From: an uncultured bacterium
GTDB taxonomy: Bacteria; Patescibacteriota; JABMPQ01; CAVVCK01
Direction: 5' to 3'
Assembly (NCBI GenBank): GCA_963746775.1
Contig: CAVVCK010000002.1
Coordinates: 139,571 to 203,570, forward strand
Length of the DNA stretch: 64,000 nucleotides
Below, one piece after another: positions 5,555 through 20,098 of this stretch. Positions within the stretch are counted from its first letter, which is position 1. Each line of letters begins with the position of its first letter. The notes below the pieces were generated by a model. It was not told the origin of the DNA. It did not search any database and saw nothing but the letters and a program-made list of their open reading frames with translations. The position numbers were made by a program, and so were the translations under genes.

Positions 5555-7170
5555 TATTTCATAGTTATTTCTTCTTTTTTTTCTCTTATAAAGGTAAAAA
5601 AATCCTCAGAAATTTCTATAAATGCCTTAAATGGCGCATCTATAATAAAATCTAATATAAATACAAAAATATTAATACGAGAAAAATTTAAAGAAAGCCA
5701 ACGTCCTGCTCTTAAAATTGGAATAGCCAAAAAATCAACCATAGTAGTAATAGCCCCCTCCCGCTCTCCTGCAATAATTAATTCTCTAGCTGATTCCCTG
5801 CTTCTAATTCCAAAAAAAGAAACAAGAGATAAAAATAAAATAAAAATAAATATACCCAAAGCCCCAAAACCAAATCTACTTAAAATGTAAATTATTAAAC
5901 CAAAAGAAACAGCATAAGTAATAATATAGAAAAAATTAAATAAAATATTGGAAAATATATTTCTAGTAACAGATGTTTTTATTTTTTGAGCCAAAATGTT
6001 TTCTTCTTCTTCGTATATTATTCTTCTAATATTATCTATAATATTTTCAGTATTTTTTTCCTTGGGTACTCTAATTGATAGGAGTATTAAAAACAATAAA
6101 ATAGGATGAAAAATAACATTAATAATAAGCGGTTTATAGTCAAAGGCTGATGCAAAATACATATCATAAGGTACTTCAATAGCTAGAGCTAAAAGCATTT
6201 TAGTTACAAAAATATAAATAATACTTCTAACCCCGCTGCGTTTTAACTTTGCCCTGGTATCACTATATTTTTCTTCACAGGCTTCTTTGGATTCTTCGGT
6301 TAAAGTTTTAACATTACTCAATATATCTTCAATATCTTCTCCACCTTTTTCTAAAATATCTCTTAAAATAACAAAAGAAGGCAAATATTTTTTTACCACA
6401 GTAATTAATCTACTGGACAAAGGGTGATCAATTTGATCCTCAATAGTCTGATTTAAAAATTCTATATTAGAAGCTATTTCATCTATTATTTCCCCCGAAG
6501 GACTGCCTTTCCAATGCGGATAATATAAATCTATTAGACGATAAGTGATTATTTCTCTATCAGATTTAAGAAGTGCTCTTTGAATAGCAATATATATCTG
6601 AATACTTTTTTCTTCTTTGGTTATTTTACCAGACCAAGCTATATTTTCACTCATCACTTCATACATAAAATCAGCCATAGCTTCATCTTTAACACGCGAA
6701 GCAAATATTTCTTCTATTTCGCAAGCAGCAATGCCCAATATCCAATCCATATAATCTTTTTTTTCATTTTCAGGTTTTTCGCTTTTATTGTGATAGCTAT
6801 TTAATAATAAAATATACTTATTTATTATTTTCTCAACTTTACTAATTTTATTCTCTGAAACAATTTCATTTTCTAAATATCCACCTCTGATTAATTCAAA
6901 AATCATTGGTTCTGAAATCTTTTGAGCACTGCTTTGATTTGTCAGCCTTCTTTTCAATACTCTTTTTATAGCATTTTTTCTTAAAAGATGCTCTTCTTTA
7001 TAATCAATAACGTTTCTAATTTTTTCATACAAAAAAGCAAGTTTAGAAACTGTCCTATTAACTTTTATTTTTGGCGATGCATTTTCTTTCTTGTCTTCTT
7101 TTTTTCTTTCAAAAGCTTGAATTAACTTTTCAGTAGGTTTGGTTAAAGTTCTATATTCGTCTTGTAGCAT
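5554..7170 (-). CDS. hypothetical protein, soluble N-terminal region plus C-terminal multi-pass membrane domain
   Basis: 538 aa. The first ~330 aa are charged and helical; after that there are at least 4 hydrophobic helices. Its stop overlaps the start of the downstream protease gene by 1 nt, suggesting translational coupling. No diagnostic motif was recognised. Confidence 0.45.
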   Translation of the reverse strand: MLQDEYRTLTKPTEKLIQAFERKKEDKKENASPKIKVNRTVSKLAFLYEKIRNVIDYKEEHLLRKNAIKRVLKRRLTNQSSAQKISEPMIFELIRGGYLENEIVSENKISKVEKIINKYILLLNSYHNKSEKPENEKKDYMDWILGIAACEIEEIFASRVKDEAMADFMYEVMSENIAWSGKITKEEKSIQIYIAIQRALLKSDREIITYRLIDLYYPHWKGSPSGEIIDEIASNIEFLNQTIEDQIDHPLSSRLITVVKKYLPSFVILRDILEKGGEDIEDILSNVKTLTEESKEACEEKYSDTRAKLKRSGVRSIIYIFVTKMLLALAIEVPYDMYFASAFDYKPLIINVIFHPILLFLILLSIRVPKEKNTENIIDNIRRIIYEEEENILAQKIKTSVTRNIFSNILFNFFYIITYAVSFGLIIYILSRFGFGALGIFIFILFLSLVSFFGIRSRESARELIIAGEREGAITTMVDFLAIPILRAGRWLSLNFSRINIFVFILDFIIDAPFKAFIEISEDFFTFIREKKEEITMK

Positions 7171-7230
7171 AATTGTTTTATTGGCTATACAAATTTATTT
7201 TACTAGAAACTTTTTATAATTTCTATATTT

Positions 7231-8331
7231 TTATATATTATAAATCTTTAGATACTTATTTATAATTATACTCCAATCATAATTTTTAGCTATTAATTCT
7301 GATTTAAGAGAAAATACTTCATAATTACTAATAACATTATTCATTTTACTAACTATTTCCTCCGTATTTAATTGATCTTCTACAATATAACCATTTATGC
7401 CTGTCTGTACTATATCTGCTAATCCTGAAGCATCTTTGGTTATAACTGTACTTAAACCACTGCTTATAGCTTCCAATAGAGCTAAAGGCAAACCTTCACC
7501 TTTCGATAATAGTAGCAAACAATTTGAATTATCATAATACTTTTTTACATTGCTGCTAAAGCCAATTAGTTTTACCTGCCTTAAATTGTTTTCTTCTATA
7601 TATTCTTTAATTTTATTATACAGAGAGCCATTACCTACTATTAAAAATTCTATTTTTTTGTTACCTTTATATTGTTCTAAAAAAATTTCAAATATTTTAA
7701 CAGTTTCTAATACTCTTTTTCTCACTTCTAATCTGCCAACATATATAAATCTAAAAATATCATTATTTTTTTCCACTAATTTATATTTATTAGTATCTAC
7801 TCCATTCTCTATTATAAAAACATTTTCATTTTTAGTAAGTTTATTAATATAATTTCTAGTATTCCTGGAAACAGCAATAATTGCATCTGATCTTTTAAAA
7901 ATAAATTTTTCTAATTTTATAAATAGAGGATAAATTATATTATAAAATATTGATTCTTTTTTTGATTCTAATCTCTGCAAATATGTATTATGAACAGTAG
8001 TAATATATTTTATGCCTCTTTGTTTAAATAATAAGAATAAAAGATGATTAATACTGTTCCCATGAATAATGCTATAATTTTCTTTTCTTAATTTAAATAA
8101 ATAATAAAAATATGACCAAAATATAAATATTATAGGATTCTGTCCACTGTAATTGATTTCTTTAATTTTAAATTTATTTTTTTTTCTCTCAAGCGATTTA
8201 GTAGTTAAAACAGTTACGTTATAATTATTTTTATTAAACTCATTGGTAATGTTTTCCACAAAAATACCCTGCCCGCCACCTACCGGAGGATAATCTAGGG
8301 ATATTATTAATATTTTATCTTTATTCAACAT
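7231..8331 (-). CDS. glycosyltransferase family 4 (GT-B fold, group 1)
   Basis: 366 aa. The N-terminus ILIISLDYPPVGGGQGIFV is GT4-like. The C-terminal EGLPLALLEAISSGLSTVITKDASGLADIV carries the E-x7-E motif of retaining GT4 enzymes. Confidence 0.75.
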   Translation of the reverse strand: MLNKDKILIISLDYPPVGGGQGIFVENITNEFNKNNYNVTVLTTKSLERKKNKFKIKEINYSGQNPIIFIFWSYFYYLFKLRKENYSIIHGNSINHLLFLLFKQRGIKYITTVHNTYLQRLESKKESIFYNIIYPLFIKLEKFIFKRSDAIIAVSRNTRNYINKLTKNENVFIIENGVDTNKYKLVEKNNDIFRFIYVGRLEVRKRVLETVKIFEIFLEQYKGNKKIEFLIVGNGSLYNKIKEYIEENNLRQVKLIGFSSNVKKYYDNSNCLLLLSKGEGLPLALLEAISSGLSTVITKDASGLADIVQTGINGYIVEDQLNTEEIVSKMNNVISNYEVFSLKSELIAKNYDWSIIINKYLKIYNI

Positions 8332-8375
8332 AAATTTGCTTTTATTTTAGCAAAAAATATTAATTTTATAAAGAA

Positions 8376-8397
8376 AAAAGAGCCTAAAATCTCTTTT
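8376..8397 (-). terminator. candidate intrinsic terminator downstream of pyrF (minus-strand reading: aaaagag-attttagg-ctctttt followed by U-rich tract)
   Basis: 7-bp stem aaaagag/ctctttt with an 8-nt loop, 60 nt past the pyrF stop. The T-rich run follows on the minus strand. The hairpin is AT-rich and weak. Confidence 0.4.
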
Positions 8398-8460
8398 CTT
8401 CTTTAAATAATTTTATTCTAAAACATTGTTACAAATCGAACATTAGAACAATTAAAACAT

Positions 8461-9225
8461 CTATAACCTTTCTTTATAAGCCTTCCAACCAGCTTCTTTA
8501 TATTTACTAGCTTCACTCAACGGATCATCCGCTTCGTATATTCCCCTACCTACTATAATCACATCACTTCCATTTTCTTTTATTACTTTTTCCGGAGTAT
8601 TGTACTGTTGACCTAGATTATCCCCTCCTTCAACTAATTTTACTCCAGGCGTAAAATTAATAAATTTAGGATCATTTAACAATTTTTTCATAGTAATAAA
8701 TCCAATAACAAAATCATTATTTTTTTCAGCCATTTTTAAAGTTTTTTCAGTATACTCTCCAGTAGCTAAATTTCCTTCTGAACTCATTTCTGCTAATAAC
8801 AGTAAACCTCTGCCTTTAGGCATACCGATTTCTTTTAGGCCATCAATAATACCTGGGCCAGATACGCTATGACAATTAATAATATCAGCCCAATCAGCTA
8901 TATGATAAATGCCTTGGGCATATTGCATCTTAACAGTATTACCAATATCAGCAAACTTTCTATCTTCAAAAATTAAGAAATTATGTTTTGCTTTTAAAAC
9001 CACTAGCTTGTCAATTAAATCTCGTGAAAAATCTTCAATAATATCAATGTGCATTTTAGCTACACAAATTTCCGGCCCAATTTTATCCAGTAATTCTAAA
9101 AGTTTTTTTCCTGAAGTAATATCAAAAGCAACAGATAGATTAGTCTTTTTTTCTTCCATCAAATTGAGAAGCTTCTTAGCAGTTGGATTGGTGCACTGCG
9201 AGGCGCGCTCTTTGTAGGTAGACAT
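8461..9225 (-). CDS. pyrF: orotidine 5'-phosphate decarboxylase, long eukaryote-type (URA3-like)
   Basis: 254 aa. It matches yeast URA3 along its whole length from MSTYKERA through [11 protein letters not shown]. The 12-mer [12 protein letters not shown] is identical, the GPxIC..K.H.DI motif is present (KMHIDI here against yeast KTHVDI), and GDNLGQQY corresponds to GDALGQQY. It is unlike the E. coli-type PyrF. Confidence 0.9.
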
Positions 9226-9236
9226 ATATTTTTATA

Positions 9237-9905
9237 TTAGATTCCATATTGCGATCTATATTCTTTAATAATTTTCATTTTCTCATCATCAATATAAATT
9301 TTTCCCTCAACTTTTTTGTTATACAAAACTTCAAATACTTCGTCTAAATCAACAATAGGATAAACTTTTGTATTAAGTTCTTTTTCTAATTTTTCGATGG
9401 CATTCTCTCCATCATTATCTTTTTCCATTCTATTTAAAGATATTAAAATACCTTTTATTTGCGGATTGCCGTTTTCTTTAAGTAATTTTACCAACTCCTT
9501 AATAGAGGTTCCGGCCGTAATTACATCATCAATAAAAACTAATTTCGTTTCACTGGTAATAGGAGCTCCAATTAGCAGATCTTTTTGGCCGTAAGTTTTT
9601 GCTTCTTTGCGATTAAAACAGTAAGATATATTCTTATTAAACTCAGTATACAAAACTGCAACAGTATTAGTAGCTAGAGGTATACCTTTGTAAGCTGGAC
9701 CATATATAACATCAGCTTCAATTTTAGAATCTATGAAAGCTTGAGCATAAAATTTTGATAAATTATGCATGGTCTCTCCAGTGTAAAAACTACCTACATT
9801 CAAAAAATAAGGGGCCGTCCGGCCACTTTTTAATTTAAAAGATCCGAATTTTAGAGCATCAGTTTTTACTAAAAATTTTATAAAGTCTTCTTTGTATTGT
9901 TTCAT
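9237..9905 (-). CDS. pyrE: orotate phosphoribosyltransferase
   Basis: 222 aa. LKFGSFKLKSGRTAPYFLN, the PRPP-binding VFIDDVITAGTS and CFNRKEAKTYG are canonical type I OPRTase motifs. Confidence 0.85.
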   Translation of the reverse strand: MKQYKEDFIKFLVKTDALKFGSFKLKSGRTAPYFLNVGSFYTGETMHNLSKFYAQAFIDSKIEADVIYGPAYKGIPLATNTVAVLYTEFNKNISYCFNRKEAKTYGQKDLLIGAPITSETKLVFIDDVITAGTSIKELVKLLKENGNPQIKGILISLNRMEKDNDGENAIEKLEKELNTKVYPIVDLDEVFEVLYNKKVEGKIYIDDEKMKIIKEYRSQYGI

Positions 9906-9922
9906 ATTTTTAAACCAATTTA

Positions 9923-10735
9923 CTAATAATATTTCTTAACACCTGTCTTATCTCTAAAATAATTCCCAAATTCTTTTATTTTTCTAACTCTCAACCCAGA
10001 AAAAACCGGACCTTCTTGGCAAATACAAATTCCTTCTGGATCTACGCTGCATTGGCCGCAAAGACCAAAACCGCATTTCATATAACGCTCCAAAGACACT
10101 TCACAAGAAACTTTATATTTATAACAAATATCAACTACTTTCTTCATCATAATTTCCGGTCCACAAGTATAGATTTTATTAAATTTATTTTTTTTATTAG
10201 AAAGTTTTTCTTCTAAAATGTCAGTGGTAAAACCTTTATGCCCCTCAGATCCATCATCAGTTGATATTAAACATGATCCAGGCAAGGCTCTTTTAAATAA
10301 AACATCTTTGGAAGTACTTGCTCCGGTAATAAAAGTAATTTGACATTTTTTCCTTTTTGCTTCTTCAGCCAAAAATCTTAAAGGTGCTGAACCACAGCCT
10401 CCACCTACTAAGATAATTTTAGATTTTGGTTTAATATTAAATCCTTTTCCATATGGTCCAGAAATTCCTAATTGATCGCCTACTTTCATATCGAATAATT
10501 TCTGAGTTCCATTGCCTACTTTCATTACTGATAATTCAAAACTATTTTTATTCTGTCTTGATATACTTATTGGAATTTGGTCAACTCGAGGAATCCAGAG
10601 CATTATAAATTGGCCAGGGGTAGCGCCTAAATCATAATCAAATATAAATGTTTTAATTTGCGACGTTTCTTGTTTTATTTTTTTGATTTTTAGGATAGTT
10701 GGTTTTTCTTGTTTTGTAATCATTCTATTTATCAA
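9923..10735 (-). CDS. pyrK: dihydroorotate dehydrogenase electron-transfer subunit (FAD/2Fe-2S)
   Basis: 270 aa. It has a ferredoxin-reductase-like FAD/NAD fold (GGGCGSAPL) and a C-terminal C-x4-C-x2-C...C cluster (CGFGLCGQCSV...C.C). It overlaps pyrD by 11 nt. Confidence 0.85.
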   Translation of the reverse strand: MINRMITKQEKPTILKIKKIKQETSQIKTFIFDYDLGATPGQFIMLWIPRVDQIPISISRQNKNSFELSVMKVGNGTQKLFDMKVGDQLGISGPYGKGFNIKPKSKIILVGGGCGSAPLRFLAEEAKRKKCQITFITGASTSKDVLFKRALPGSCLISTDDGSEGHKGFTTDILEEKLSNKKNKFNKIYTCGPEIMMKKVVDICYKYKVSCEVSLERYMKCGFGLCGQCSVDPEGICICQEGPVFSGLRVRKIKEFGNYFRDKTGVKKYY

Positions 10736-11639
10736 TTACCTTACCAATTATTGATTGTAAATTTTGGATTTTCTCTTCTTCCATTATTTTTTTTACATCT
10801 TTCATCATTTTCCCAAATATTTTCCTATTGGAAAAATAAACAGCAGACCCTACACCAACCAAAGTTGCTCCAGCCAACATCATTTCCATTACATCTTCAC
10901 CCGTAGTTACTCCTCCCGTTCCAATTATTGGAATTTTTACAGCCTGAGCAATATCATAAACTGCTTTAACAGCCATAGGTTTTATAGCAGGTCCAGATAC
11001 TCCACCAAAACGATTAGTTAGAACAAATTTACGCGTTCTGACATCTATTAATGTTCCGTTAAAAGTATTAACAGCGCAAATAGCATCTGCTCCTGCACCC
11101 TCTACTGCCTTGGCAATTTCAGCAATGCTAACTACATTGGGCGATAATTTTACAATAACTTTTATCTTAGTATTTTTCTTAACTATTTTAGTTACTTCAG
11201 AAGCTAATTTAGGATCAGAAGCAAAAGGCTTCCCAAATTCGTCCTTAACATTAGGACAAGAAATATTCACCTCTATAAAATCAGGCTTGGCCTCTGATAT
11301 TTTTCTAGCTAATTTGCCAAATTCATCTACCTCCCCTGCAAAAATACTAGCAATTAGAGGTGCTCTACAATTTTTTTTATAATATTCAATTTCTTTAATA
11401 CTTTTTTCTACTCCAGCATTAGATAGGCCAACCGCATTAATTACAAAACAACTACCAGTTGTAATAGTAGGATTAATATGACCTTCGCGCGATTCTATTG
11501 ATACTGACTTCATAGTAACCCCGCCTGCTCCTTCTTTAATGTTTCTAACCATGCATGATCCAGTCACACCCAATATGCCCGAGGCGACCACTATAGGATT
11601 GTCAAATTTTTTACCTAGAAAATTTATTTGGGTATTCAT
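10725..11639 (-). CDS. pyrD: dihydroorotate dehydrogenase catalytic subunit (class 1B)
   Basis: 304 aa with a TIM-barrel DHODH signature: NPIVVASGILG, the active-site Cys/Ser region NISCPN, and GTGGV near the C-terminus. Confidence 0.85.
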   Translation of the reverse strand: MNTQINFLGKKFDNPIVVASGILGVTGSCMVRNIKEGAGGVTMKSVSIESREGHINPTITTGSCFVINAVGLSNAGVEKSIKEIEYYKKNCRAPLIASIFAGEVDEFGKLARKISEAKPDFIEVNISCPNVKDEFGKPFASDPKLASEVTKIVKKNTKIKVIVKLSPNVVSIAEIAKAVEGAGADAICAVNTFNGTLIDVRTRKFVLTNRFGGVSGPAIKPMAVKAVYDIAQAVKIPIIGTGGVTTGEDVMEMMLAGATLVGVGSAVYFSNRKIFGKMMKDVKKIMEEEKIQNLQSIIGKVIDK

Positions 11640-11675
11640 ATTTCTAATTTCTAATTTTTCTATTTATACACTTAT

Positions 11676-13289
11676 TTATCTTTTTTTCCTCAAAAGTTTA
11701 TTAATAGTATCGATAGCTACATCAACATTCGTTACTAAGGGTATGTCTTTTTCTAAAACCTTTGTTCTTATCAACTGTCCATCTGTTATAGATTTTTTCT
11801 TTTTACCATTAGGAATATTTATTACTAAATCAAATCTCTTATATTTAATAAAACTGGATATATTTGGTTTCTTTTTTTGTGATATTTTATACAAAACACT
11901 TACATTTTTTAATCCATTTTGCTCTAAATATTTAGCAGTACCTTCTGTGGCATATAATTTAACTTTTTGTTCAGCTAATTTTTTCACAAATGGCATTAAC
12001 TTACTCTTATCTTTGTTTTTACCAATACTGATTAAAATATTCTTTTTAATTCTTTTGGACATTTTCATTTGCAAGGTCCATAGCTCAATAAATCCAGGGC
12101 TAGCATTTTGATTAAATATTTCTGACTTCATAAAGGTAGCCATCTTTTCATCAAATAGAGCATCGGGAGATTTAATTGCTACCACTTCACAATTACCTTT
12201 GTATAATCTTAAAGTAACTATACCATTCACTTTTTTATTTACTTCATCTAAATAAGCATTCAAACTTTTCATTAATGGTTCATACCAAAATCCTCCATAA
12301 CATAAATAGGCCCACTCTTGATCTACTATAGTTTTAAATTTATTTTCTTGCCTAGTACACATAAATTTCTCAATTTCTCTGTGTGCTTTAATAATAGTAT
12401 GAGCAGCTGGCATCTCATATATTCCTCGTACTTTCAAGCCCACCACTCTATCTTCCAAATGATGAGAAATGCCTATTCCATGTCTGGCGGCTAATTTATT
12501 TAATTTAATAATCAAATCAGATAACTTCATTTCTTTGCCATTCAACGCAACTGGGATTCCTTTTACAAATTCTAATTTAATTTTTTCAGATTTATTCGGA
12601 GCTTTTTGAGGCAAGGTACATACTTGTAAAATTTTTTCCAAAGGAGGAATTAATTCTGGATTTTCTATTTCACCCCCTTCACCAGTTACACCCCACATAT
12701 TATCATCCCAGGAATATGGAACTGGCGTAGTTTTTTTAATTGGAATATTATGCTTCTTAGCATATTCTATTTCTTCTTCACGTCCCATGCCCCATTCTCG
12801 AACAGGTGCTATTACTTTCATATCAGGATTTAAGGTTATAACAGTACCTTCAATTCTTACTTGATCATTTCCCTTACCAGTACATCCATGAGCAATCGTA
12901 TCTGCCTTTTCTTGCTCTGCAACTTCAACGGCTATTTTGGCAAGCAAAGGACGGCCTAAGGGAGTAGATAAATGATATTTGCCTTGATAAGAAGCATTAG
13001 CTTTTATGCCCTTAGCTACATATTCTTCAGCAAACTCATCTTTTGCATCTACTACTATGCTTTTTAAAGCACCGAGTTTTATAGCTTTTTTTCTTATCTC
13101 TTCTAGATCATCCGCTTGCTGACCAATATCAATACATAATGCTATTACCTCTGCTTTATATACATCCTGAATCCACTTCAACATTACCGAAGTATCGAGA
13201 CCTCCTGAATAAAGTAAAACTACTTTATGAACTTCAGAAGGATCTGGTTCATAATAGGCTACCTTCACATACTTGTGTTCTTTTTGCAT
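11676..13289 (-). CDS. argG: argininosuccinate synthase fused to a C-terminal MGS-like (CarB/PurH-type) domain
   Basis: 537 aa. Residues 1-~400 align with ASS: PP-loop LLYSGGLDTS, AHGCTGKGNDQVRIE, GIYEMPAAHTI. Residues ~410-537 read ILISIGKNKDKSK...KLYATEGTAKYLEQNGL...DLVINIP...IRTKVLEKDIPLVT. This matches the MGS-like fold (CarB ATHGTA, PurH TGGTAKLL). Confidence 0.8.
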   Translation of the reverse strand: MQKEHKYVKVAYYEPDPSEVHKVVLLYSGGLDTSVMLKWIQDVYKAEVIALCIDIGQQADDLEEIRKKAIKLGALKSIVVDAKDEFAEEYVAKGIKANASYQGKYHLSTPLGRPLLAKIAVEVAEQEKADTIAHGCTGKGNDQVRIEGTVITLNPDMKVIAPVREWGMGREEEIEYAKKHNIPIKKTTPVPYSWDDNMWGVTGEGGEIENPELIPPLEKILQVCTLPQKAPNKSEKIKLEFVKGIPVALNGKEMKLSDLIIKLNKLAARHGIGISHHLEDRVVGLKVRGIYEMPAAHTIIKAHREIEKFMCTRQENKFKTIVDQEWAYLCYGGFWYEPLMKSLNAYLDEVNKKVNGIVTLRLYKGNCEVVAIKSPDALFDEKMATFMKSEIFNQNASPGFIELWTLQMKMSKRIKKNILISIGKNKDKSKLMPFVKKLAEQKVKLYATEGTAKYLEQNGLKNVSVLYKISQKKKPNISSFIKYKRFDLVINIPNGKKKKSITDGQLIRTKVLEKDIPLVTNVDVAIDTINKLLRKKR

Positions 13290-13298
13290 TTTTTTAAA

Positions 13299-14270
13299 TT
13301 ATTTTATATTTAATAAATTTATACCGTTAGTAGTTGCAATATTTACCAATTGATCGAAATCGTAATACCGGCAAGCTTCTTGAATCATTCTTACTTCAAA
13401 CCATATATTTCCATCATTGAATGGATTATAGAAATCACAAATATTATCAATCCCTAAGGCGACCGTTACTCCCGCCTCTATCATTTCGGGAATATTGGCT
13501 ATAGAATTATGAACTGGGGCACTATATTGATCTAATTGTTTCATACTAAGTGCTGCTGATGGGCAAACCACTACTCCGATTCCTGCATCAATTAAGCCTT
13601 TATAAATTTCTTGCCTGTATTTTTTATCTTGAGCTGCAACCGATAAAGCGTGAATTGCTACCACTCTTCCTTCATATTTATATTTTTTTGTATATTTTAT
13701 CAATTTCTCTGTATCACGCTCATTAGGATTATTTTCTTGGTCTATATGTACATGAATAGGTTTATTTAAATTTCTTGCTATGGAAAATAAATAATCAAAA
13801 TTTTTATTATCCTCTGGCCTATCCTTTGAAGGAAGACCACCGGCTACATCTGCTTTAGCTGTTATTTCTTCATAAATTTTCCTCTCATTACTATCCACTA
13901 ATCCCCCCAAGGATTGAGTTATAGTTTTAAAATTAATTTTATTTTTATATTCTTCTTTTACTTTTAGGACTGCATCTATATTTTTATGTCCCACAGCGCT
14001 ATAGGCATCTATAAAACTGCATGTATTTTTACATCCTTGAGCAATTAATATATCTAAAGCCGTTTTAATTCTATCCATTACTTCTTCCTCGGTTGATTTT
14101 TTCTTTATATCATCACTCATAAGCCATTTCTCTTCCATATCAACCATGCTCTTATTAAGTCCTTCGCGAGTTATATAAAAAGCTTTATCAAAATGTCCAT
14201 GGCAATTTACAAATCCGCCTTTATCTTTTACTTTTTCTAAAAATTGTTTTTTTAAGTTCCACTTTTCCAT
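13299..14270 (-). CDS. amidohydrolase-superfamily metallo-hydrolase, cytosine-deaminase (CodA)-like
   Basis: 323 aa. N-terminal HGH (CHGHFDK), HVHIDQENNPNE (cf. CodA VHCDEIDDEQ), AIHALS (cf. ASHTTA) and ALGIDNICDFYNPFNDGN (cf. CFGHDDVFDPWYPLG). It differs from the dihydroorotase motif set (no ATDHAPH). Confidence 0.55.
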   Translation of the reverse strand: MEKWNLKKQFLEKVKDKGGFVNCHGHFDKAFYITREGLNKSMVDMEEKWLMSDDIKKKSTEEEVMDRIKTALDILIAQGCKNTCSFIDAYSAVGHKNIDAVLKVKEEYKNKINFKTITQSLGGLVDSNERKIYEEITAKADVAGGLPSKDRPEDNKNFDYLFSIARNLNKPIHVHIDQENNPNERDTEKLIKYTKKYKYEGRVVAIHALSVAAQDKKYRQEIYKGLIDAGIGVVVCPSAALSMKQLDQYSAPVHNSIANIPEMIEAGVTVALGIDNICDFYNPFNDGNIWFEVRMIQEACRYYDFDQLVNIATTNGINLLNIK

Positions 14271-14293: not shown

Positions 14294-14320
14294 AAAAAAA
14301 CACCCCCGATTTAGGGGGTG
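14294..14320 (-). terminator. rho-independent terminator (minus strand: CACCCCC-uaaauc-GGGGGUG + U7)
   Basis: 7-bp GC-rich stem, 6-nt loop, then 7 U on the minus strand. It lies 210 nt past the ribBA stop and only ~25 nt before the start codon of the CodA-like gene. Confidence 0.6.
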
Positions 14321-14533
14321 CTATTGTTAAAACTGATAGAGACGACCAATGAATATATGATCCTCCATTGATTTATGATATTGAATTTTATTCTTGATTT
14401 TCAATTTTTACTTTATTAAATACCCCGCAAATTTCTTACGAGGTAATTTTTATTACTTTTATTTATTTTATTCTATATTTAATGCTATGTCAAAGGGGTA
14501 GTTATCCACAAGGGATTATGATCCACAGAATTT

Positions 14534-15724
14534 TTATAGTTTATGCCCCATCCTATCCTTCTTAGTTTTTAAATACTTCTTATTATACTTATTAGCTTTT
14601 ATTTTAACTGGAACAACTTTATTGATTTCTAACCCATACCCTTCTAACCCTATGACCTTACATGGATTATTAGTCATTAAATTAATCGATGTAAGCCCTA
14701 AATCTGTTAAAATTTGTGCCCCGATCCCGTAGTCTCTTAAATCACATTTATAGCCTAGCTTCTTATTGGCATCTACGGTATCCAACCCCCGATCTTGCAA
14801 ACCATAAGCTTTTAATTTTGCTTCCAGTCCAATTCCTCTTCCTTCTTGTCTCATATATAGAATTACTCCCTGCCCTTTCTCTTGAATTATTTTCATAGCT
14901 TCTTGTAATTGTTCCCCACAATCACATCTTTTGGAATAAAAAACATCCCCAGTTAAACATTCCGAATGCACCCTTACCAAAATATTTTTTTTATTTTTTA
15001 CCTGACCCTTTATTAAGGCTAAATGTAAATAATTATCAATTTTTGACTCATAAAGCTTAATTCTAAATTCTCCAAAATCTGTAGGAAGTTTTGTCTCAAC
15101 AACTTTTTTTATTAATTTTTCACGCGACTGTCTATACCTAATCAAATCAGCTATCGATATTATTTTTAATTTGTGCAGTTTAGCAAATTTTCTCAATTCA
15201 GGAAGTCTTGCCATTGTTCCATTTTCATTCATAATCTCACATATTACTCCAGCAGGATATAATCCAGATAGTCTTGCTAAATCAACAGCGGCTTCCGTAT
15301 GTCCGGCTCTTTTTAATACCCCGCCTTCTTTAGCACTTAAGGGAAATAAATGCCCAGGACGAGCTAAGTCTTTGGGTTTAGTTTTTGAACTTATTAAAGC
15401 TTTAACTGTCTTAGCTCTATCAGAAGCAGATATCCCTGTAGTTGTTCCCATTTTTACATCAACAGATACTGTAAAAGCAGTTCCATGTACATCCTCATTT
15501 TTCTGCAGCATGGGATTAATATCAAGCTCACTTAATCTCTTAGCCTCCATAGGCATACATATTAATCCTCTGCCAAAACACGCCATAAAATTTATGGCTT
15601 TACTGTTTGCATATTTTGCAGCCACTATTAAATCACCTTCGTTTTCTCTATCTTCATCATCAACGACTATTATAAATTTGCCTGATTTAAAATCTTTTAT
15701 GGCTTGTTGTATAGTGTTTAACAT
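14534..15724 (-). CDS. ribBA: bifunctional 3,4-dihydroxy-2-butanone-4-phosphate synthase / GTP cyclohydrolase II; start placed at internal Met (tracked ORF extends to 15808)
   Basis: RibB motifs [11 protein letters not shown] and RAGHTEA, then RibA C..CDCG zinc motif and [10 protein letters not shown]. The first 28 codons of the tracked ORF are hydrophobic junk that overlaps an intergenic repeat element. Met29 ([12 protein letters not shown]) fits RibB N-termini. Confidence 0.85.
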
Positions 15725-15750
15725 ATTTATGATATGAAAATTTGTTATTT

Positions 15751-15860
15751 GGAAAATAGAAATTAGTAATAAATACTTGAAATTAGAAAATAGTTTATCA
15801 ATTCCCATTTTCTATTTTCTATTACCATTTTCCAACTTCTAAATAGCTATTTTCCTTCTT
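15751..15860 (-). repeat. ~110-bp AT-rich intergenic repeat element, copy 1 (paralogous to 22215-22324)
   Basis: Read on the minus strand both copies begin AGGAAAATAG(C/T)TATTT(A/G)GAA. They share ...TAAT.GAAA.TAGAAAATAG...TATTTTCTAATTTC.AGT, and each contains an internal inverted repeat gaaattagaaaatag/ctattttctaatttc. Confidence 0.5.
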
Positions 15861-16932
15861 TTACAAATCCCCTCACCATCAAATTATCCTCCAATCTCTT
15901 AATTTCAACATCCTTTAACTTTAAAATCTTATCAAGCTTATCTAAAATTGGCAATTCTCCTTTTCCAAACATTTCCAAAGCTATAAATAAATATATTTCA
16001 TCAATCAGCTTTTGATTTATAAATTCAGTAGCAGTTTTTTGTCCTCCTTCAACTAATAAGCTAATAATTTTTAACTTACCTAATTCTTTTAATAATCTTT
16101 TTAAATCAAATTTATTATTTTTAATATCTAACTCTAAAAATCTTATCCCCTTTCTTTCCAGCTGCTTAATTTTATTAGATGCTAAATCTTTTTTTACAAC
16201 CATAACAGTTCCCTTTCGCAAAACCTTAGATTTTAAATCAATTTTTAAATTAGGATCTAAAATTATTGGAATAATTTTACTTTTACTATTTTTTAATCTC
16301 ACATTTAGTTCGGGGTTGTCATTCTTAATAGTATTTATGCCCACTAAAATAGCATCTATGCTACTTCTTATTTTATGAACATATTCTAAAGATTTTTTAT
16401 TAGTTATATATTTATCACTGGAATGAGTAATTTTACCATCCAAACTCATCCCACTTTTCCAAATTATATAAGGCCTACCAGTTTTTATATATTTAAAAAA
16501 ATATTTATTTAAATCAATCGCTTCTTTTTTCATTAAGCCTAATTCAGCTTCAATATTATTTTCTCTTAATTTTTTTATTCCCCTACCGTTCACTTTTTTA
16601 TTTGGATCTTTACAGGCTACTATAACTTTCTTAATTTTTCTTTTTATAATTTCATTAACACAAGGAGGAGTATTCCCAAGGTGGCAACATGGCTCTAAAT
16701 TAACATATAAGATTGAGCCATTTATTTTATTTTTATTACCTCGATTTATAGCATCTTCTATAGCTTCAATTTCCGCATGATTCGAGCCATATTCTTTATG
16801 ATATCCTTGACCAATTATCTTATTATTTCTAATTAAAACAGCACCAACTAAAGGATTTGGTGAAACTTCACCTTCACCCAATTTAGCTAGTTCTATTACT
16901 TTTTCCATTATAGTCTTATCTTTATCAATCAT
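15847..16932 (-). CDS. ribD: bifunctional riboflavin biosynthesis deaminase/reductase
   Basis: 361 aa. The CMP/dCMP-type zinc deaminase motifs HAEIEAIE and PCCHLGNTPPC are followed by a reductase (RibG-like) domain. It is adjacent to ribBA. Confidence 0.85.
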   Translation of the reverse strand: MIDKDKTIMEKVIELAKLGEGEVSPNPLVGAVLIRNNKIIGQGYHKEYGSNHAEIEAIEDAINRGNKNKINGSILYVNLEPCCHLGNTPPCVNEIIKRKIKKVIVACKDPNKKVNGRGIKKLRENNIEAELGLMKKEAIDLNKYFFKYIKTGRPYIIWKSGMSLDGKITHSSDKYITNKKSLEYVHKIRSSIDAILVGINTIKNDNPELNVRLKNSKSKIIPIILDPNLKIDLKSKVLRKGTVMVVKKDLASNKIKQLERKGIRFLELDIKNNKFDLKRLLKELGKLKIISLLVEGGQKTATEFINQKLIDEIYLFIALEMFGKGELPILDKLDKILKLKDVEIKRLEDNLMVRGFVKEGK

Positions 16933-17042: not shown

Positions 17043-17456
17043 ATGCTGCCCCTTCAAAAACAAAAAAACTATGGTTTTACCTTAGTTGAACTACTAGTAG
17101 TGATAGCTATTATTGGTATTTTGGCTTCTTTGATGTATGTTTCTTTTGTTAGAACCAAACAAAAAGGTCAAGATGCTAGTATTAAAAGTGACTTAAGACA
17201 AATTGCTCTAGCTATGGAAATGGCTTATGACCACAATCAAGCCTACCTCACTTCTGAAAATATCCCCGCTTCTATTACAGTTGATGGTAATGAATATTTG
17301 AGGAATATTCCAGAAAACCCACAAGGCAATAATTATGACTGGACTAATAATATAGAAAATAGTCAAACATATTGCGCAGGCTCAGATTTGAAATTAGAAG
17401 ATTATTTTAGGTGTGATGAAAATGGGTGTAAGGAAACTACAAATGTTTGTCCTTAA
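17043..17456 (+). CDS. type IV pilin / pseudopilin (prepilin-type N-terminal cleavage-methylation domain)
   Basis: 137 aa. NYG|FTLVELLVVIAIIGILASL gives a class III signal with Gly-1, Phe+1, Glu+5 and a hydrophobic helix. C-terminal Cys pair. Confidence 0.75.
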   Translation: MLPLQKQKNYGFTLVELLVVIAIIGILASLMYVSFVRTKQKGQDASIKSDLRQIALAMEMAYDHNQAYLTSENIPASITVDGNEYLRNIPENPQGNNYDWTNNIENSQTYCAGSDLKLEDYFRCDENGCKETTNVCP

Positions 17457-17609: not shown

Positions 17610-20098
17610 CTAATTCACTCCATGCCAATTTTCTATAACTGCTATATCTGCTCCGTTTCTTAAGGTTTCATCGCCAAAAGCAAAGAAATTAGGCCATGTC
17701 CTCCATTTTCCAGTGGGCTCAAAAGCTAGCACTTGCGGCCCATTAGAACCTATAGGGGAAATTAAAAGTTCATCTTTGCCATCAAGGTCAATATCACCTG
17801 GAATATTCTTAAAGTTTCCTCTAACATTCTGTTGGTAAACCCACCAGAAATTCTTTCTAGCACCATTCTTATCAAAAACATTAACTTGAGAAGAGCCATT
17901 ATTGGGAGTAGTGTAAATTCTATCTTCTATGCCGGCAGCAGTTAAACCCTGGTTTATAGGAGCATCATAAGCCCAAAAGTCTTTCTTAAGAGTCCCACCT
18001 ACGGTATAGATCCAGACCTTGGGTTCAGCTACACCATGATTAGGGGTAACTAATAATTCTTCTGCCCCGTCATCATACTGGAATGTTCCTAAGTTGCAGC
18101 CATTAGCGCCATATGGAGCATCAAATTGATTAATTAATTCCCAGTTATCTACGCCAGTAGCATCTTTAAATATTTTAACGCGTGGACTGTAATCTCCTGT
18201 GAGACAAGCTGCTATGTCATCTTGAAAACCATCATTATCAAAATCTCCGGAAACCATAGAAAGACCATCTCTAATAGAGCTGGTATTAGCTTTATCATCG
18301 GGTTTTTGGAAAAGGAACATTTGTCCTTTAAGTACTAGAGAACCATCTTCTCTGAGGCCCATAACTCTTGCTTGAGGACCACCATTATTAATCGCAAAGA
18401 TTACAAACTGATCCTTTACTCCATTATTGTTTTGATCAATGGACACTATGCCTGCTCCACCAAGATAAGAAGGTGGGAAAAGACCTTCGTTAATTTTAAC
18501 ATCCGTTGCATTACCATGTCTATCATAAGCCCAAAGACGAGTTGTCTCTCCTGGACCGGAGGTGGTGAGGATTTTGGGGGAGAGGATGGGGGTAAGATCA
18601 GTATCAGTATCTGTATAGTATCAGTATCAGTATCAGTATCAGTATCTGTATCAGTTGTATCTGTGTCATCGCCTGTGGAAGTATCTAGAATGATAGTATC
18701 TGATATGATACTACTTGCTCCTTGAGCATTGCCTATTCTTGCATAGACTGTTTTTGTGCCATCTCCTGTAGTTAAGGTGTGAGTGGTCGTTGCACTAAAT
18801 GGTATGGCTGTACCATCTGATAAATCTGATTGGTTGCCTATTATCATGTAGGTAGCACCGCTATAGGATGAAAAAGTTAGGTCTACTTCTCTGATAGTGG
18901 TAGTGGAGGCTGCGGAGTTTATGGAGAGAGTGGGGTTGGAGGGGGATGTCGAGGTGGTGGCGTATTTAAGGGAGCCGGCTGTTTCATCATAATAGCTAAT
19001 GTGTAGATTATCTGATGAGTCAAGAGCGATAGAAGTATATAACCCAACACTATCAGCACCACCATTATCTACTACTGTACTTACCCAGCTACCTGATTGG
19101 TTGGTGGAATATTTTAGATCACCATCTGTAAAATCACCATAGCTAATGTGTACCTTATCCGAAGAGTCGAGAGCTATAGAAGTACAAAAACTAACATCAT
19201 TAGTACCTCCTCCATTATCTACTACTGTACTTACCCAGCTACCTGATTGGTTAGTGGCATATTCTAGAACACCATCTGAAGCATCACCATAGCTAATATG
19301 TACATTATCTGAAGAGTCGATAGCGATAGAAGTATCATATCCAACAGCATGAAGACTATCATCTACTGCTGTACTTACCCAGCTACCTGATTGGTTAGTG
19401 GCATATTTTAGATCATTATCTGTATAATCTTGATAGCTAATATGTACCTTATCTAATGAGTCGAGAGCTATGGAAGTATAAATTCCAACTCTATTAGCAC
19501 CACCATTATCTACTATCTCATTTTCAAAACTACCTGATTGGTTAGTAGCATATTTTAGATCATGATCTGTAAAATCACCATAGCTAATGTGTACCTTATC
19601 CGAAGAGTCGAGAGCTATAGAAGTAAAAATTCCAACACTATTAGCACCACCATTATCTACTATCTCATTTTCAAAACTACCTGATTGGTTAGTAGCATAT
19701 TTTAAATCACCAGCTATTTCATCACCATAGCTAATATGAACATTATCTGAAGAGTCGAGAGCTATGGAAGTATAAACTTCACTATGAATTTCAGTAGTAC
19801 CTACTCCATTATCTACTACTGTACTTACCCAGCTACCTGATTGGTTGGTAGTATACATAAGATTGCCTAATTCATGATTATAATAGCTTATATGAACATA
19901 ACCCAAAGAATCTATTGCTATTGAATCAAATTCACCATAATTAGTGGAACTATAATCTATATCTTCTATTGTCCAAGAAGCAGCTTTTACTTGATTTGGA
20001 AAACTTAAATTAATTACACCACATAGAGATGTTACTGTTATGATTGATATTAGCAGTAGGAATGATTTAGAGAAAAATGTTTTAATTCTTTTTTTCAT
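17610..20098 (-). pseudogene. large secreted surface protein (signal peptide, ~8 tandem ~44-aa beta-propeller-like repeats, (DT)n linker, shared FG-GAP-like C-terminal domain) interrupted by a 1-nt frameshift in a (GATACT)n tract near 18615
   Basis: Tracked ORFs 18446-20098 (550 aa) and 17610-18446 (278 aa, GTG start) are in different frames. The downstream frame reads open upstream as YYTDTDTDLTPILSPKILTTSGPGETTRLWAYDRHGN...GGAGIVSIDQNNNG. That is collinear with the paralogs at 20245-22173 and 29776-32829 (PKIITTSGPGE...GGAGIVSIDSNNNG). The unit gtata at 18611-18615 is one base short of the surrounding gtatca hexamers. Restoring one base fuses the two ORFs in frame. Confidence 0.55.
18601..18660. 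repeat. hexanucleotide microsatellite (GTATCA/GATACT)x~9, encodes (Asp-Thr)n linker; contains the frameshift
   Basis: Plus strand gtatca gtatct gtata gtatca gtatca gtatca gtatca gtatct gtatca. Confidence 0.8.

Follow-up and report, generated by a model that had tools for sequence, protein, structure and literature searches.

An argininosuccinate synthase with a CarB-type allosteric tail in pyrimidine operons of Patescibacteria, and a possible route to dihydroorotate without carbamoyl phosphate

Why should an enzyme of arginine synthesis carry an allosteric domain and lie within a block of pyrimidine genes? The question is raised by a 64,000-nucleotide stretch of DNA, hereafter the window, from an uncultured member of the Patescibacteriota (GenBank assembly GCA_963746775.1, contig CAVVCK010000002.1, positions 139,571 to 203,570 of the forward strand). 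In it, a single open reading frame (ORF) joins an argininosuccinate synthase (ASS, the product of argG) to a methylglyoxal synthase (MGS)-like domain. This gene, ArgG-MGS, is the second of a six-gene operon that begins with an amidohydrolase (AH) and continues, after ArgG-MGS, with pyrD, pyrK, pyrE and pyrF; the intergenic gaps are 9, 36, -11, 17 and 11 bp. With moderate confidence, ArgG-MGS is read here as an enzyme that uses ATP, is regulated by nucleotides and opens a route to dihydroorotate free of carbamoyl phosphate.

The two parts of the protein were assigned with profile models. Both Pfam domains of ASS were found (Arginosuc_synth at residues 22-183, E = 7e-69; Arginosuc_syn_C at residues 192-410, E = 3e-67), and residues 19-415 scored above the cut-offs of two NCBIfam equivalog models for argG, PRK00509 (522.5 bits, cut-off 334) and TIGR00032 (463.8 bits, cut-off 268.2). 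Pfam PF02142 placed an MGS domain at residues 431-520 (E = 4.5e-20, 72 bits against a gathering score of 24.1). The original prediction, made by a model from the DNA letters and their translated reading frames, had called the first 400 or so residues ArgG and the C-terminal segment MGS-like, quoting the motifs SGGLDTS and HGCTGKGNDQVR. Both motifs are present in the ORF, both assignments held, and the neighbouring genes proved to be those claimed, an amidohydrolase upstream and pyrD, pyrK, pyrE and pyrF downstream. The alternative that the tail is merely the ordinary C-terminal helix of ASS was ruled out by alignment with the Thermus thermophilus ASS structure 1j1z, in which the ArgG helix is intact and complete and the MGS domain is appended behind it. 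An assembly or frameshift artefact was also rejected, because at least 120 independent protein clusters, at 64-82% identity, and 43 of 80 genome loci show the same architecture.

The domain architecture was surveyed in a search of 5.8 billion proteins, in which the best 120 matches all had the same three domains and represented at least 120 clusters at 90% identity. Named matches were nearly all from Patescibacteria, the candidate phyla radiation (CPR), including Magasanik-, Moran- and Roizmanbacteria, Microgenomates, Torokbacteria and others, and all were annotated merely as 'argininosuccinate synthase'. Full-text literature searches returned no description of an ArgG-MGS fusion and no link between argininosuccinate and pyrimidines. 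The original prediction, which knew of no described fusion of this kind, was borne out as far as papers go, but the fusion is no rarity: databases already contain it as a widespread CPR family. For comparison of gene content, a scan of one genome per species yielded 80 loci, 43 with the fusion and 38 with a non-fusion ArgG from the same CPR/DPANN-type clade, the latter including two truncated fusions. After removal of duplicates 41 fusion and 36 non-fusion loci remained. The labels Oligoflexia, Silvanigrellales or Chlamydiae are attached to a few of the fusion loci. Most fusions formed one clade nested among the non-fusion CPR-type ArgGs in a neighbour-joining tree, and two Beckwithbacteria-like fusions branched apart. 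Many fusion loci (within L018-L085) have the gene content typical of CPR but bear the titles 'uncultured Gammaproteobacteria' or 'Pseudomonadales' (binchicken co-assemblies). Such taxonomy seems to be a placeholder or an error, and is unfit for inferring distribution.

By every sequence test ArgG-MGS is a member of the ArgG family. The match to 1j1z (E = 2.5e-104) extended over nearly its whole length, and the PP-loop SGGLDTS occupies residues 28-34. The residues that we take to be the citrulline and aspartate ligands of human ASS1 (Y87, T119, N123, D124, R127, S180, S189, E270 and Y282) map through 1j1z to Y101, T137, N141, D142, R145, S193, T202, E279 and Y291, all unchanged except for the Ser to Thr replacement at T202. 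Across the family alignment the presumed ATP, citrulline and aspartate ligand positions are invariant. An alignment of 43 fusion and 36 non-fusion ArgGs was searched for positions that separate the two groups, and at the thresholds used none was found; an altered substrate specificity was rejected on this ground. The 'DDNMWGVTGEGG' signature is common to the whole CPR/DPANN-type clade and is not specific to the fusions. Because the ligand positions are conserved and no residue distinguishes fusions from non-fusion ArgGs, the product of ArgG-MGS is almost certainly argininosuccinate. The protein shares with canonical ArgG/ASS1 (EC 6.3.4.5; PRK00509, TIGR00032; 1j1z, 2nz2) the full-length catalytic domain, PP-loop, ligand positions and oligomerisation helix. 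It differs in its extra C-terminal domain, in having an AtzC/CodA-like amidohydrolase and not argH as its partner, and in its location in a pyrD-K-E-F operon; the contextual test, pairing with argH, is the one that it failed within the 64 kb of the window.

The tail is, by its profile and structure matches, of the CarB allosteric type and not of the PurH type. It matched CarB positions 933-1044 at E = 8e-15 with NCBIfam models, and among solved structures it matched the human CPS1 domain 2yvq (E = 1e-10) and residues 944-1042 of Escherichia coli CarB (1bxr, E = 7e-5). The original prediction had named CarB and PurH together. Of these, CarB stood and PurH was rejected: PurH models gave marginal matches of 21-22 bits (cut-offs 402 and 528; E = 6e-5) covering some 40-50 residues, and PurH structures in the PDB gave E = 0.17-0.73. 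The E. coli CarB residues that we take to bind the phosphate and ribose of IMP or UMP (S948, K954, T974, T977, K993, N1015 and D1025) align with S421, K428, T448, T451, K468, N491 and D503 of the tail, and all seven are conserved; CarB T1017 is not. The presumed nucleotide-site residues are kept in both types of fusion that were aligned, ArgG-MGS and an MGS-AH fusion described below. At K468 the tail agrees with bacterial CarB, whereas the N-acetylglutamate-binding CPS1 has Trp. Like the allosteric domain of CarB and CPS1 (PF02142; 1bxr, 2yvq), the tail belongs to the MGS fold family and lies at the C-terminus of an ATP-using enzyme that commits a carbamoyl or ureido unit, but it sits on a PP-loop synthetase and not on ATP-grasp domains, and the same module is also found on AH and PyrD. 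The domain would thus be the CarB allosteric module moved to a new committed step and exerting feedback control as in CarB, with UMP or IMP-type nucleotides as the most likely ligands and perhaps ornithine. The original prediction had suggested nucleotide-type allosteric control of an arginine-pathway enzyme, or a new activity. That idea holds up, the conserved ligand residues being in favour of the control, and the pyrimidine and AH context speaks against a role in arginine synthesis.

Gene context separates the fusions from their close relatives. ORFs were called in all loci and clustered, with at most about 21 kb read per locus. AH was present in 37 of 41 fusion loci, in most cases right next to ArgG-MGS and in the same orientation, and in 0 of 36 non-fusion loci (Fisher p = 1e-17). 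Likewise, pyrD was found in 27 fusion loci, a pyrE-like gene in 25 and a pyrF-like gene in 22, and none of the three in any non-fusion locus. The opposite was observed for ArgH-like genes (7/41 fusion vs 30/36 non-fusion loci) and for homologues of aspartate or ornithine transcarbamoylase (1/41 vs 14/36). Thirty-two fusion loci have 3 kb or more of sequence on both sides; of these, 30 have a separate AH, one (L010) has AH fused to PyrD, and one (L004) has a different cog0402 deaminase. A DDAH-like gene, whose product is closest to dimethylargininase and arginine dihydrolase models, occurs in eight fusion loci in the order ArgG-MGS, DDAH-like, AH(-PyrD), and is missing from about 33 of the 41. 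The genes carA, carB, pyrB and pyrC were absent from the 64 kb of the window and from 40 of the 41 fusion loci (~20 kb per locus), the exception being L018. When the 64 kb were searched by tblastn with CarA, CarB, PyrB, PyrC, ArgH, ornithine transcarbamoylase (OTC) and DDAH-like queries, the only match was that of the CarB MGS domain to the ArgG-MGS tail; the earlier remark that the window holds no argH was correct. Ten unassigned neighbours were scanned for a hidden PyrB or PyrC, and none qualified as either. Insofar as the fusion ArgGs sit with AH and pyrD, pyrE and pyrF, and their close non-fusion relatives with argH, ArgG-MGS probably does not work in arginine synthesis here.

The usual partner of the fusion, AH, passed the NCBIfam equivalog model PRK06886, itself named 'hypothetical protein', at 371.3 bits (cut-off 340). 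Its AlphaFold2 (AF2) model had a pLDDT of 85.6, and the nearest relative both by sequence and by Foldseek was AtzC (2qt3, E = 2e-18, TM 0.79), followed by cytosine and 5-methylcytosine deaminases and then by imidazolonepropionase, TrzN and adenosine deaminase. AtzC is an N-isopropylammelide isopropylaminohydrolase and CodA a cytosine deaminase, both of the amidohydrolase superfamily. AH resembles these two enzymes (2qt3 and 1k6w, TM 0.79-0.84) in its TIM barrel and mononuclear metal site (HxH, strand-5 His, strand-8 Asp and strand-6 His), with the ligands H24, H26, H175 and D275, plus H207, all kept, and it shares the HxHxDK and DNxxD motifs of AtzC. It differs from them in lacking the N-terminal beta-sandwich (323 residues against about 400-430), in two active-site replacements that are weighed below, in an invariant HIDQENNP motif of its own, and in a context of pyrimidine synthesis as opposed to triazine or cytosine catabolism. 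The 'CodA-like hydrolase' of the original prediction has CodA and AtzC among its nearest structures, but cytosine deaminase itself was rejected as an identity, with the best such model at 98.9 bits against a cut-off of 403, Gln178 at the position of Glu217 and Leu121 at that of Gln156. Dihydroorotase (PyrC) was also rejected, none being present among the NCBIfam and Pfam matches or the top 50 Foldseek matches in the PDB. AtzC removes an alkylamine by hydrolysis at a ring carbon of amidine type. By analogy, chemistry of this type is what the release of ornithine would require, whether from the guanidino carbon of argininosuccinate or from that of its six-membered cyclic anhydride.

Further evidence came from other fusions. 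In a search of 1.84 billion representative proteins, several AH homologues of ~480 residues carry an N-terminal MGS domain (E = 1e-8 to 1e-17) preceded by a remnant of the ArgG C-terminal helix, and their genes are convergent to pyrD in non-CPR contigs. Fusions of AH to PyrD are recurrent (at least seven clusters, 687-923 residues) and point to dihydroorotate as the product; the AH half of one of them, P0394, scored 420 bits with PRK06886. MGS-PyrD proteins (about 501 residues) and proteins joining an asparaginyl-tRNA synthetase (AsnRS)-like domain, MGS and PyrD (about 807-853 residues) also exist, and locus L094 has the order ArgG-MGS, AH, AsnRS-like-MGS-PyrD, PyrF, PyrE. Since MGS is found on ArgG, AH and PyrD, the module travels among the enzymes of this gene set and belongs to pyrimidine genes, not to arginine synthesis.

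Two operons are mirror images of one another. Locus L096 reads ArgG-MGS, DDAH-like, AH-PyrD, PyrF, PyrE, and locus L097 reads CarA, CarB with its MGS domain, PyrB, dihydroorotase (DHOase)-PyrD, an unknown gene, PyrE, PyrF. Over 350 residues the PyrD halves of AH-PyrD and DHOase-PyrD share 59% identity, whereas the N-terminal halves are unrelated, one matching PRK06886 (420 bits) and the other dihydroorotase models. The genes have been replaced in place: the positions of CarAB, PyrB and DHOase are taken by ArgG-MGS, the DDAH-like gene where there is one, and AH. The same holds against the canonical operon of Bacillus type (carA-carB-pyrB-pyrC-pyrK-pyrD-pyrF-pyrE), represented here by L097 and L018. 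The pyrD, pyrK, pyrE and pyrF half and the operon logic are alike, the first enzyme to use ATP carries an MGS domain, and PyrD is directly preceded by, or fused to, a TIM-barrel amidohydrolase. What differs is that CarA, CarB, PyrB and DHOase are exchanged for ArgG-MGS, sometimes a DDAH-like protein, and AH, and that the implied carbamoyl donor is citrulline, via argininosuccinate, in place of carbamoyl phosphate.

The route that we infer would begin with the ArgG part, which, as its sequence strongly indicates, would join citrulline and aspartate at the expense of ATP to give argininosuccinate. AH would then attack the guanidino carbon and expel ornithine as the leaving amine, giving either dihydroorotate or N-carbamoyl-aspartate that is cyclised afterwards. 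The atoms of argininosuccinate (C10H18N4O6) are those of dihydroorotate (C5H6N2O4) plus ornithine (C5H12N2O2), and the direct formation of dihydroorotate would therefore be net water-neutral. Ordinary PyrD/PyrK, PyrE and PyrF would complete the synthesis of UMP, and carbamoyl phosphate, PyrB and PyrC would all be bypassed. Citrulline would come from scavenged arginine and, in the lineages of the eight loci with a DDAH-like or arginine-dihydrolase-like operon gene, might be supplied by its product. In lineages that keep argH (L007, L008 and others), argininosuccinate would be the branch point for arginine and pyrimidines, like carbamoyl phosphate in ordinary bacteria. Carbamoyl phosphate is considered the pyrimidine nucleotide precursor in all domains of life (PMC13260591, a 2026 paper). 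In the same study, Thermococcales that lack carbamoyl-phosphate synthetase were described as using arginine-derived carbamoyl phosphate for pyrimidines, made via ArcE and ArcB/OTC and fed into the normal pathway (PMC13260591). This Thermococcus arginine route is the nearest biological precedent: in both cases arginine or citrulline would supply the carbamoyl unit of the pyrimidine, but no OTC or aspartate transcarbamoylase accompanies the ArgG-MGS genes, and the proposed intermediate is argininosuccinate and not carbamoyl phosphate.

Several observations weigh against the proposed route. The second step is without a precedent known to us. AH has Gln178 where CodA has its catalytic Glu217 and Leu121 where it has the substrate-binding Gln156, so neither CodA nor AtzC can serve as a simple model of its chemistry. 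The absence of pyrB, pyrC and carAB is established for the 64-kb window, part of a 547-kb contig, and for ~20 kb around each locus. In L018, ArgG-MGS and AH are followed directly by CarA, CarB, PyrB, DHOase, PyrD and PyrF, so the two gene sets can coexist, at least once. L007, L008, L015, L029 and L030/31 have a true argH within the operon or close to it, and MGS-AH and MGS-PyrD genes occur with pyrD or other pyr genes but with no ArgG nearby. The roles given to the ASS1 and CarB ligand residues rest on published structures. Finally, the full-length AF2 model of ArgG-MGS is mediocre (mean pLDDT 71.6, with ~85 for the MGS domain and below 50 for linker residues 380-414), and neither an interface between ArgG and MGS nor their relative placement can be read from it.

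Three other explanations were weighed. The one that survives best, although we consider it unlikely, is that ArgG-MGS is an ordinary arginine-biosynthetic ASS with a CarB-like regulatory tail, its adjacency to pyr genes a matter of co-regulation, AH an unrelated salvage deaminase or divergent dihydroorotase, and carAB, pyrB and argH encoded elsewhere. It would agree with an ArgG part that is indistinguishable from its argH-linked relatives, with the presence of argH in some fusion operons, with the canonical genes next door in L018, and with gene content that was read locus by locus. It is at odds with the fall of argH adjacency and the climb of AH from the non-fusion loci to the fusion clade (30/36 to 7/41 and 0/36 to 37/41, respectively), with the fusion of MGS to AH and PyrD as well, and with AH itself, which misses the cytosine deaminase cut-offs by a wide gap (98.9 vs 403 bits) and lacks Glu217. 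The mirror operons L096 and L097, moreover, argue for replacement and not for mere co-location.

A second explanation, quite improbable in our view, keeps the pathway and divides the labour otherwise: a DDAH/amidinotransferase-fold or other enzyme would split argininosuccinate into ornithine and N-carbamoyl-aspartate, and AH would be a non-canonical dihydroorotase that does no more than close the ring. The DDAH-like gene is missing from about 33 of 41 fusion loci, including the 64 kb of the window, and AH belongs to the mononuclear deaminases, its top matches by structure or sequence including no dihydroorotase. Where the gene is present, its position between ArgG-MGS and AH(-PyrD) mirrors the order of the steps in eight loci, AH occupies the exact position of the DHOase in the DHOase-PyrD protein of L097, and amidinotransferase-fold enzymes can free ornithine from a guanidino carbon; however, the closeness of the DDAH-like protein to dimethylargininase and arginine dihydrolase models fits a supply of citrulline from arginine equally well. 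A different pyrimidine-related chemistry, for example one in which aspartate serves to aminate or modify a pyrimidine or ureido compound, much as in PurA/PurB, and MGS holds the nucleotide substrate, is very improbable: PP-loop enzymes do adenylate nucleobase carbonyl oxygens besides citrulline, ArgH-like or PurB-like lyases and PurA are frequent neighbours, and L004 presents a variant cluster with an 8-oxoguanine-deaminase-like enzyme, two phosphoribosyltransferases (PRTases) and an unknown 454-residue protein, but the citrulline and aspartate ligand positions are all conserved with no specificity change relative to true ArgGs, and the AH-PyrD fusions indicate dihydroorotate as the product.

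The wider form of the proposed carbamoyl-phosphate-free route is put forward more tentatively. It holds that many CPR/Patescibacteria, together with some archaeal-looking genomes and some labelled Oligoflexia or Chlamydiae, may use a new pyrimidine route that involves neither carbamoyl phosphate nor aspartate transcarbamoylase and proceeds via ArgG-MGS, under UMP-type feedback, and AH. If this were true, it would constitute a second way into the pyrimidine ring, built from an arginine-cycle enzyme and the uncharacterised amidohydrolase family PRK06886, and argininosuccinate would replace carbamoyl phosphate as the branch point of arginine and pyrimidines. It could explain why CPR genomes with pyrD, pyrE and pyrF may look incomplete for pyrimidine synthesis. 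Auxotrophy predictions would change for a very large group of uncultured bacteria, whose nucleotide supply would be tied to scavenged arginine or citrulline. An allosteric domain would have been passed as a cassette among CarB, ArgG, AH and PyrD, enzymes of a single pathway that are not homologous, and thousands of annotations as 'argininosuccinate synthase' or 'cytosine deaminase-related' would need correction.

The features of the operon are collected in Table 1. Its leader contains a promoter-like site at 14493-14465 (TTGACA-17-TAAAAT, a strong match in a consensus scan) and a GC-rich hairpin with a U-run at 14322-14299, which ends about 29 nt before the AH start codon; a possible mini-ORF of 13 codons directly precedes the hairpin. 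Thirteen other fusion loci (L007, L021, L022, L024, L027, L028, L032-L035, L039, L048 and L063) have similar terminator-like hairpins, located 25-90 nt upstream of the gene that opens the operon. In three of these 13 the upstream neighbour is divergent, and the hairpin therefore cannot be the terminator of that gene. The leader hairpin may be a pyrimidine-responsive attenuator. An Rfam scan of the operon leader returned no family at the gathering threshold and only chance-level matches.

Table 1. Features of the ArgG-MGS operon and its leader in the window (positions are those of the 64,000-nucleotide stretch)
Feature	Position	Strand	Basis
ArgG-MGS fusion gene including stop codon, 537 aa, ATG start	11676..13289	(-)	ORF list, Pfam, NCBIfam, homologous fusions in at least 120 clusters
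Argininosuccinate synthase catalytic part, aa 22-410	12060..13226	(-)	PF00764 + PF20979, PRK00509, 1j1z alignment
CarB-type MGS-like allosteric domain, aa ~415-537	11679..12047	(-)	PF02142, CarB 933-1044 match, 2yvq, ligand positions
AH, PRK06886-type amidohydrolase, 323 aa, 9 bp upstream of ArgG-MGS, proposed partner	13299..14270	(-)	NCBIfam, PDB relatives, context, fusions
pyrD, catalytic subunit of dihydroorotate dehydrogenase (DHODH), 36 bp downstream of ArgG-MGS	10725..11639	(-)	PF01180, E = 7e-71
pyrK, electron-transfer subunit of DHODH B	9923..10735	(-)	PF10418, PF00175, PF00970
pyrE, orotate phosphoribosyltransferase	9237..9905	(-)	Pfam Pribosyltran on identical gene in L001
pyrF, orotidine monophosphate (OMP) decarboxylase	8461..9225	(-)	Pfam OMPdecase on identical gene in L001
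Operon leader, promoter-like site and terminator-like hairpin	14299..14493	(-)	Consensus scans, sequence

Additional fusions and cluster variants were recorded. The AsnRS-like-MGS-PyrD proteins (P0411-P0419, P0444-P0447; L094 8001-10502) have a class II synthetase core without an anticodon domain, which also matches archaeal asparagine synthetase A more weakly, and some of them add a PRTase (about 1130 residues). That the AsnRS-like domain adenylates the aspartyl beta-carboxylate to drive ring closure is pure speculation. One MGS-PyrD gene (L095 8001-9506; other such proteins are P0433-P0439) lies in a PyrD-PyrF-PyrE-Prs-PyrG operon with no ArgG, AH, CarB or PyrB within 8 kb. Multi-enzyme fusions of the late steps also occur in CPR, namely PyrK-PyrE-PyrF (761 residues), PyrD-PRTase (633 residues) and PyrD-PyrE-PyrF (about 850 residues), at L012 6346-8631 and L016 7294-9195 and in proteins P0399 and P0402. 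The L004 variant (4706-12354, Roizmanbacteria) comprises ArgG-MGS, a DDAH-like protein, the 8-oxoguanine-deaminase-like amidohydrolase (447 residues), the 454-residue protein, which has no family match, a PRTase, a uracil phosphoribosyltransferase-like protein and another unknown protein; beside it is a divergent CTP synthase gene. This cluster lacks pyrD and pyrF, and its product may be a different one. In two of the fusion loci with argH (L015 2782-5539 and L029 11279-12382), the neighbours include Mur-ligase-domain, ATP-grasp and AlaDH/PNT-N-domain proteins, a set that may be cyanophycin-like or ornithine-handling.

Directly upstream of the operon in the window, on the same strand, are ribBA (DHBP synthase/GTP cyclohydrolase II) and ribD (14534-16932 (-)), and in L014 a protein with a GTP-cyclohydrolase-II domain also adjoins the fusion. 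Farther upstream, 18446-20098 (-) encodes a secreted-looking protein of 550 residues with about eight repeats of ~45 residues (…SIALDSSDKVHISY…KYATNQSGSW…) and a C-terminal (TD)n run. Beside it are genes for an FG-GAP-like protein of 278 residues (17610-18446 (-)) and a type IV pilin-like protein (N_methyl; 17043-17456 (+)), and the strand opposite the repeat protein contains a (SV)n ORF that is probably spurious.

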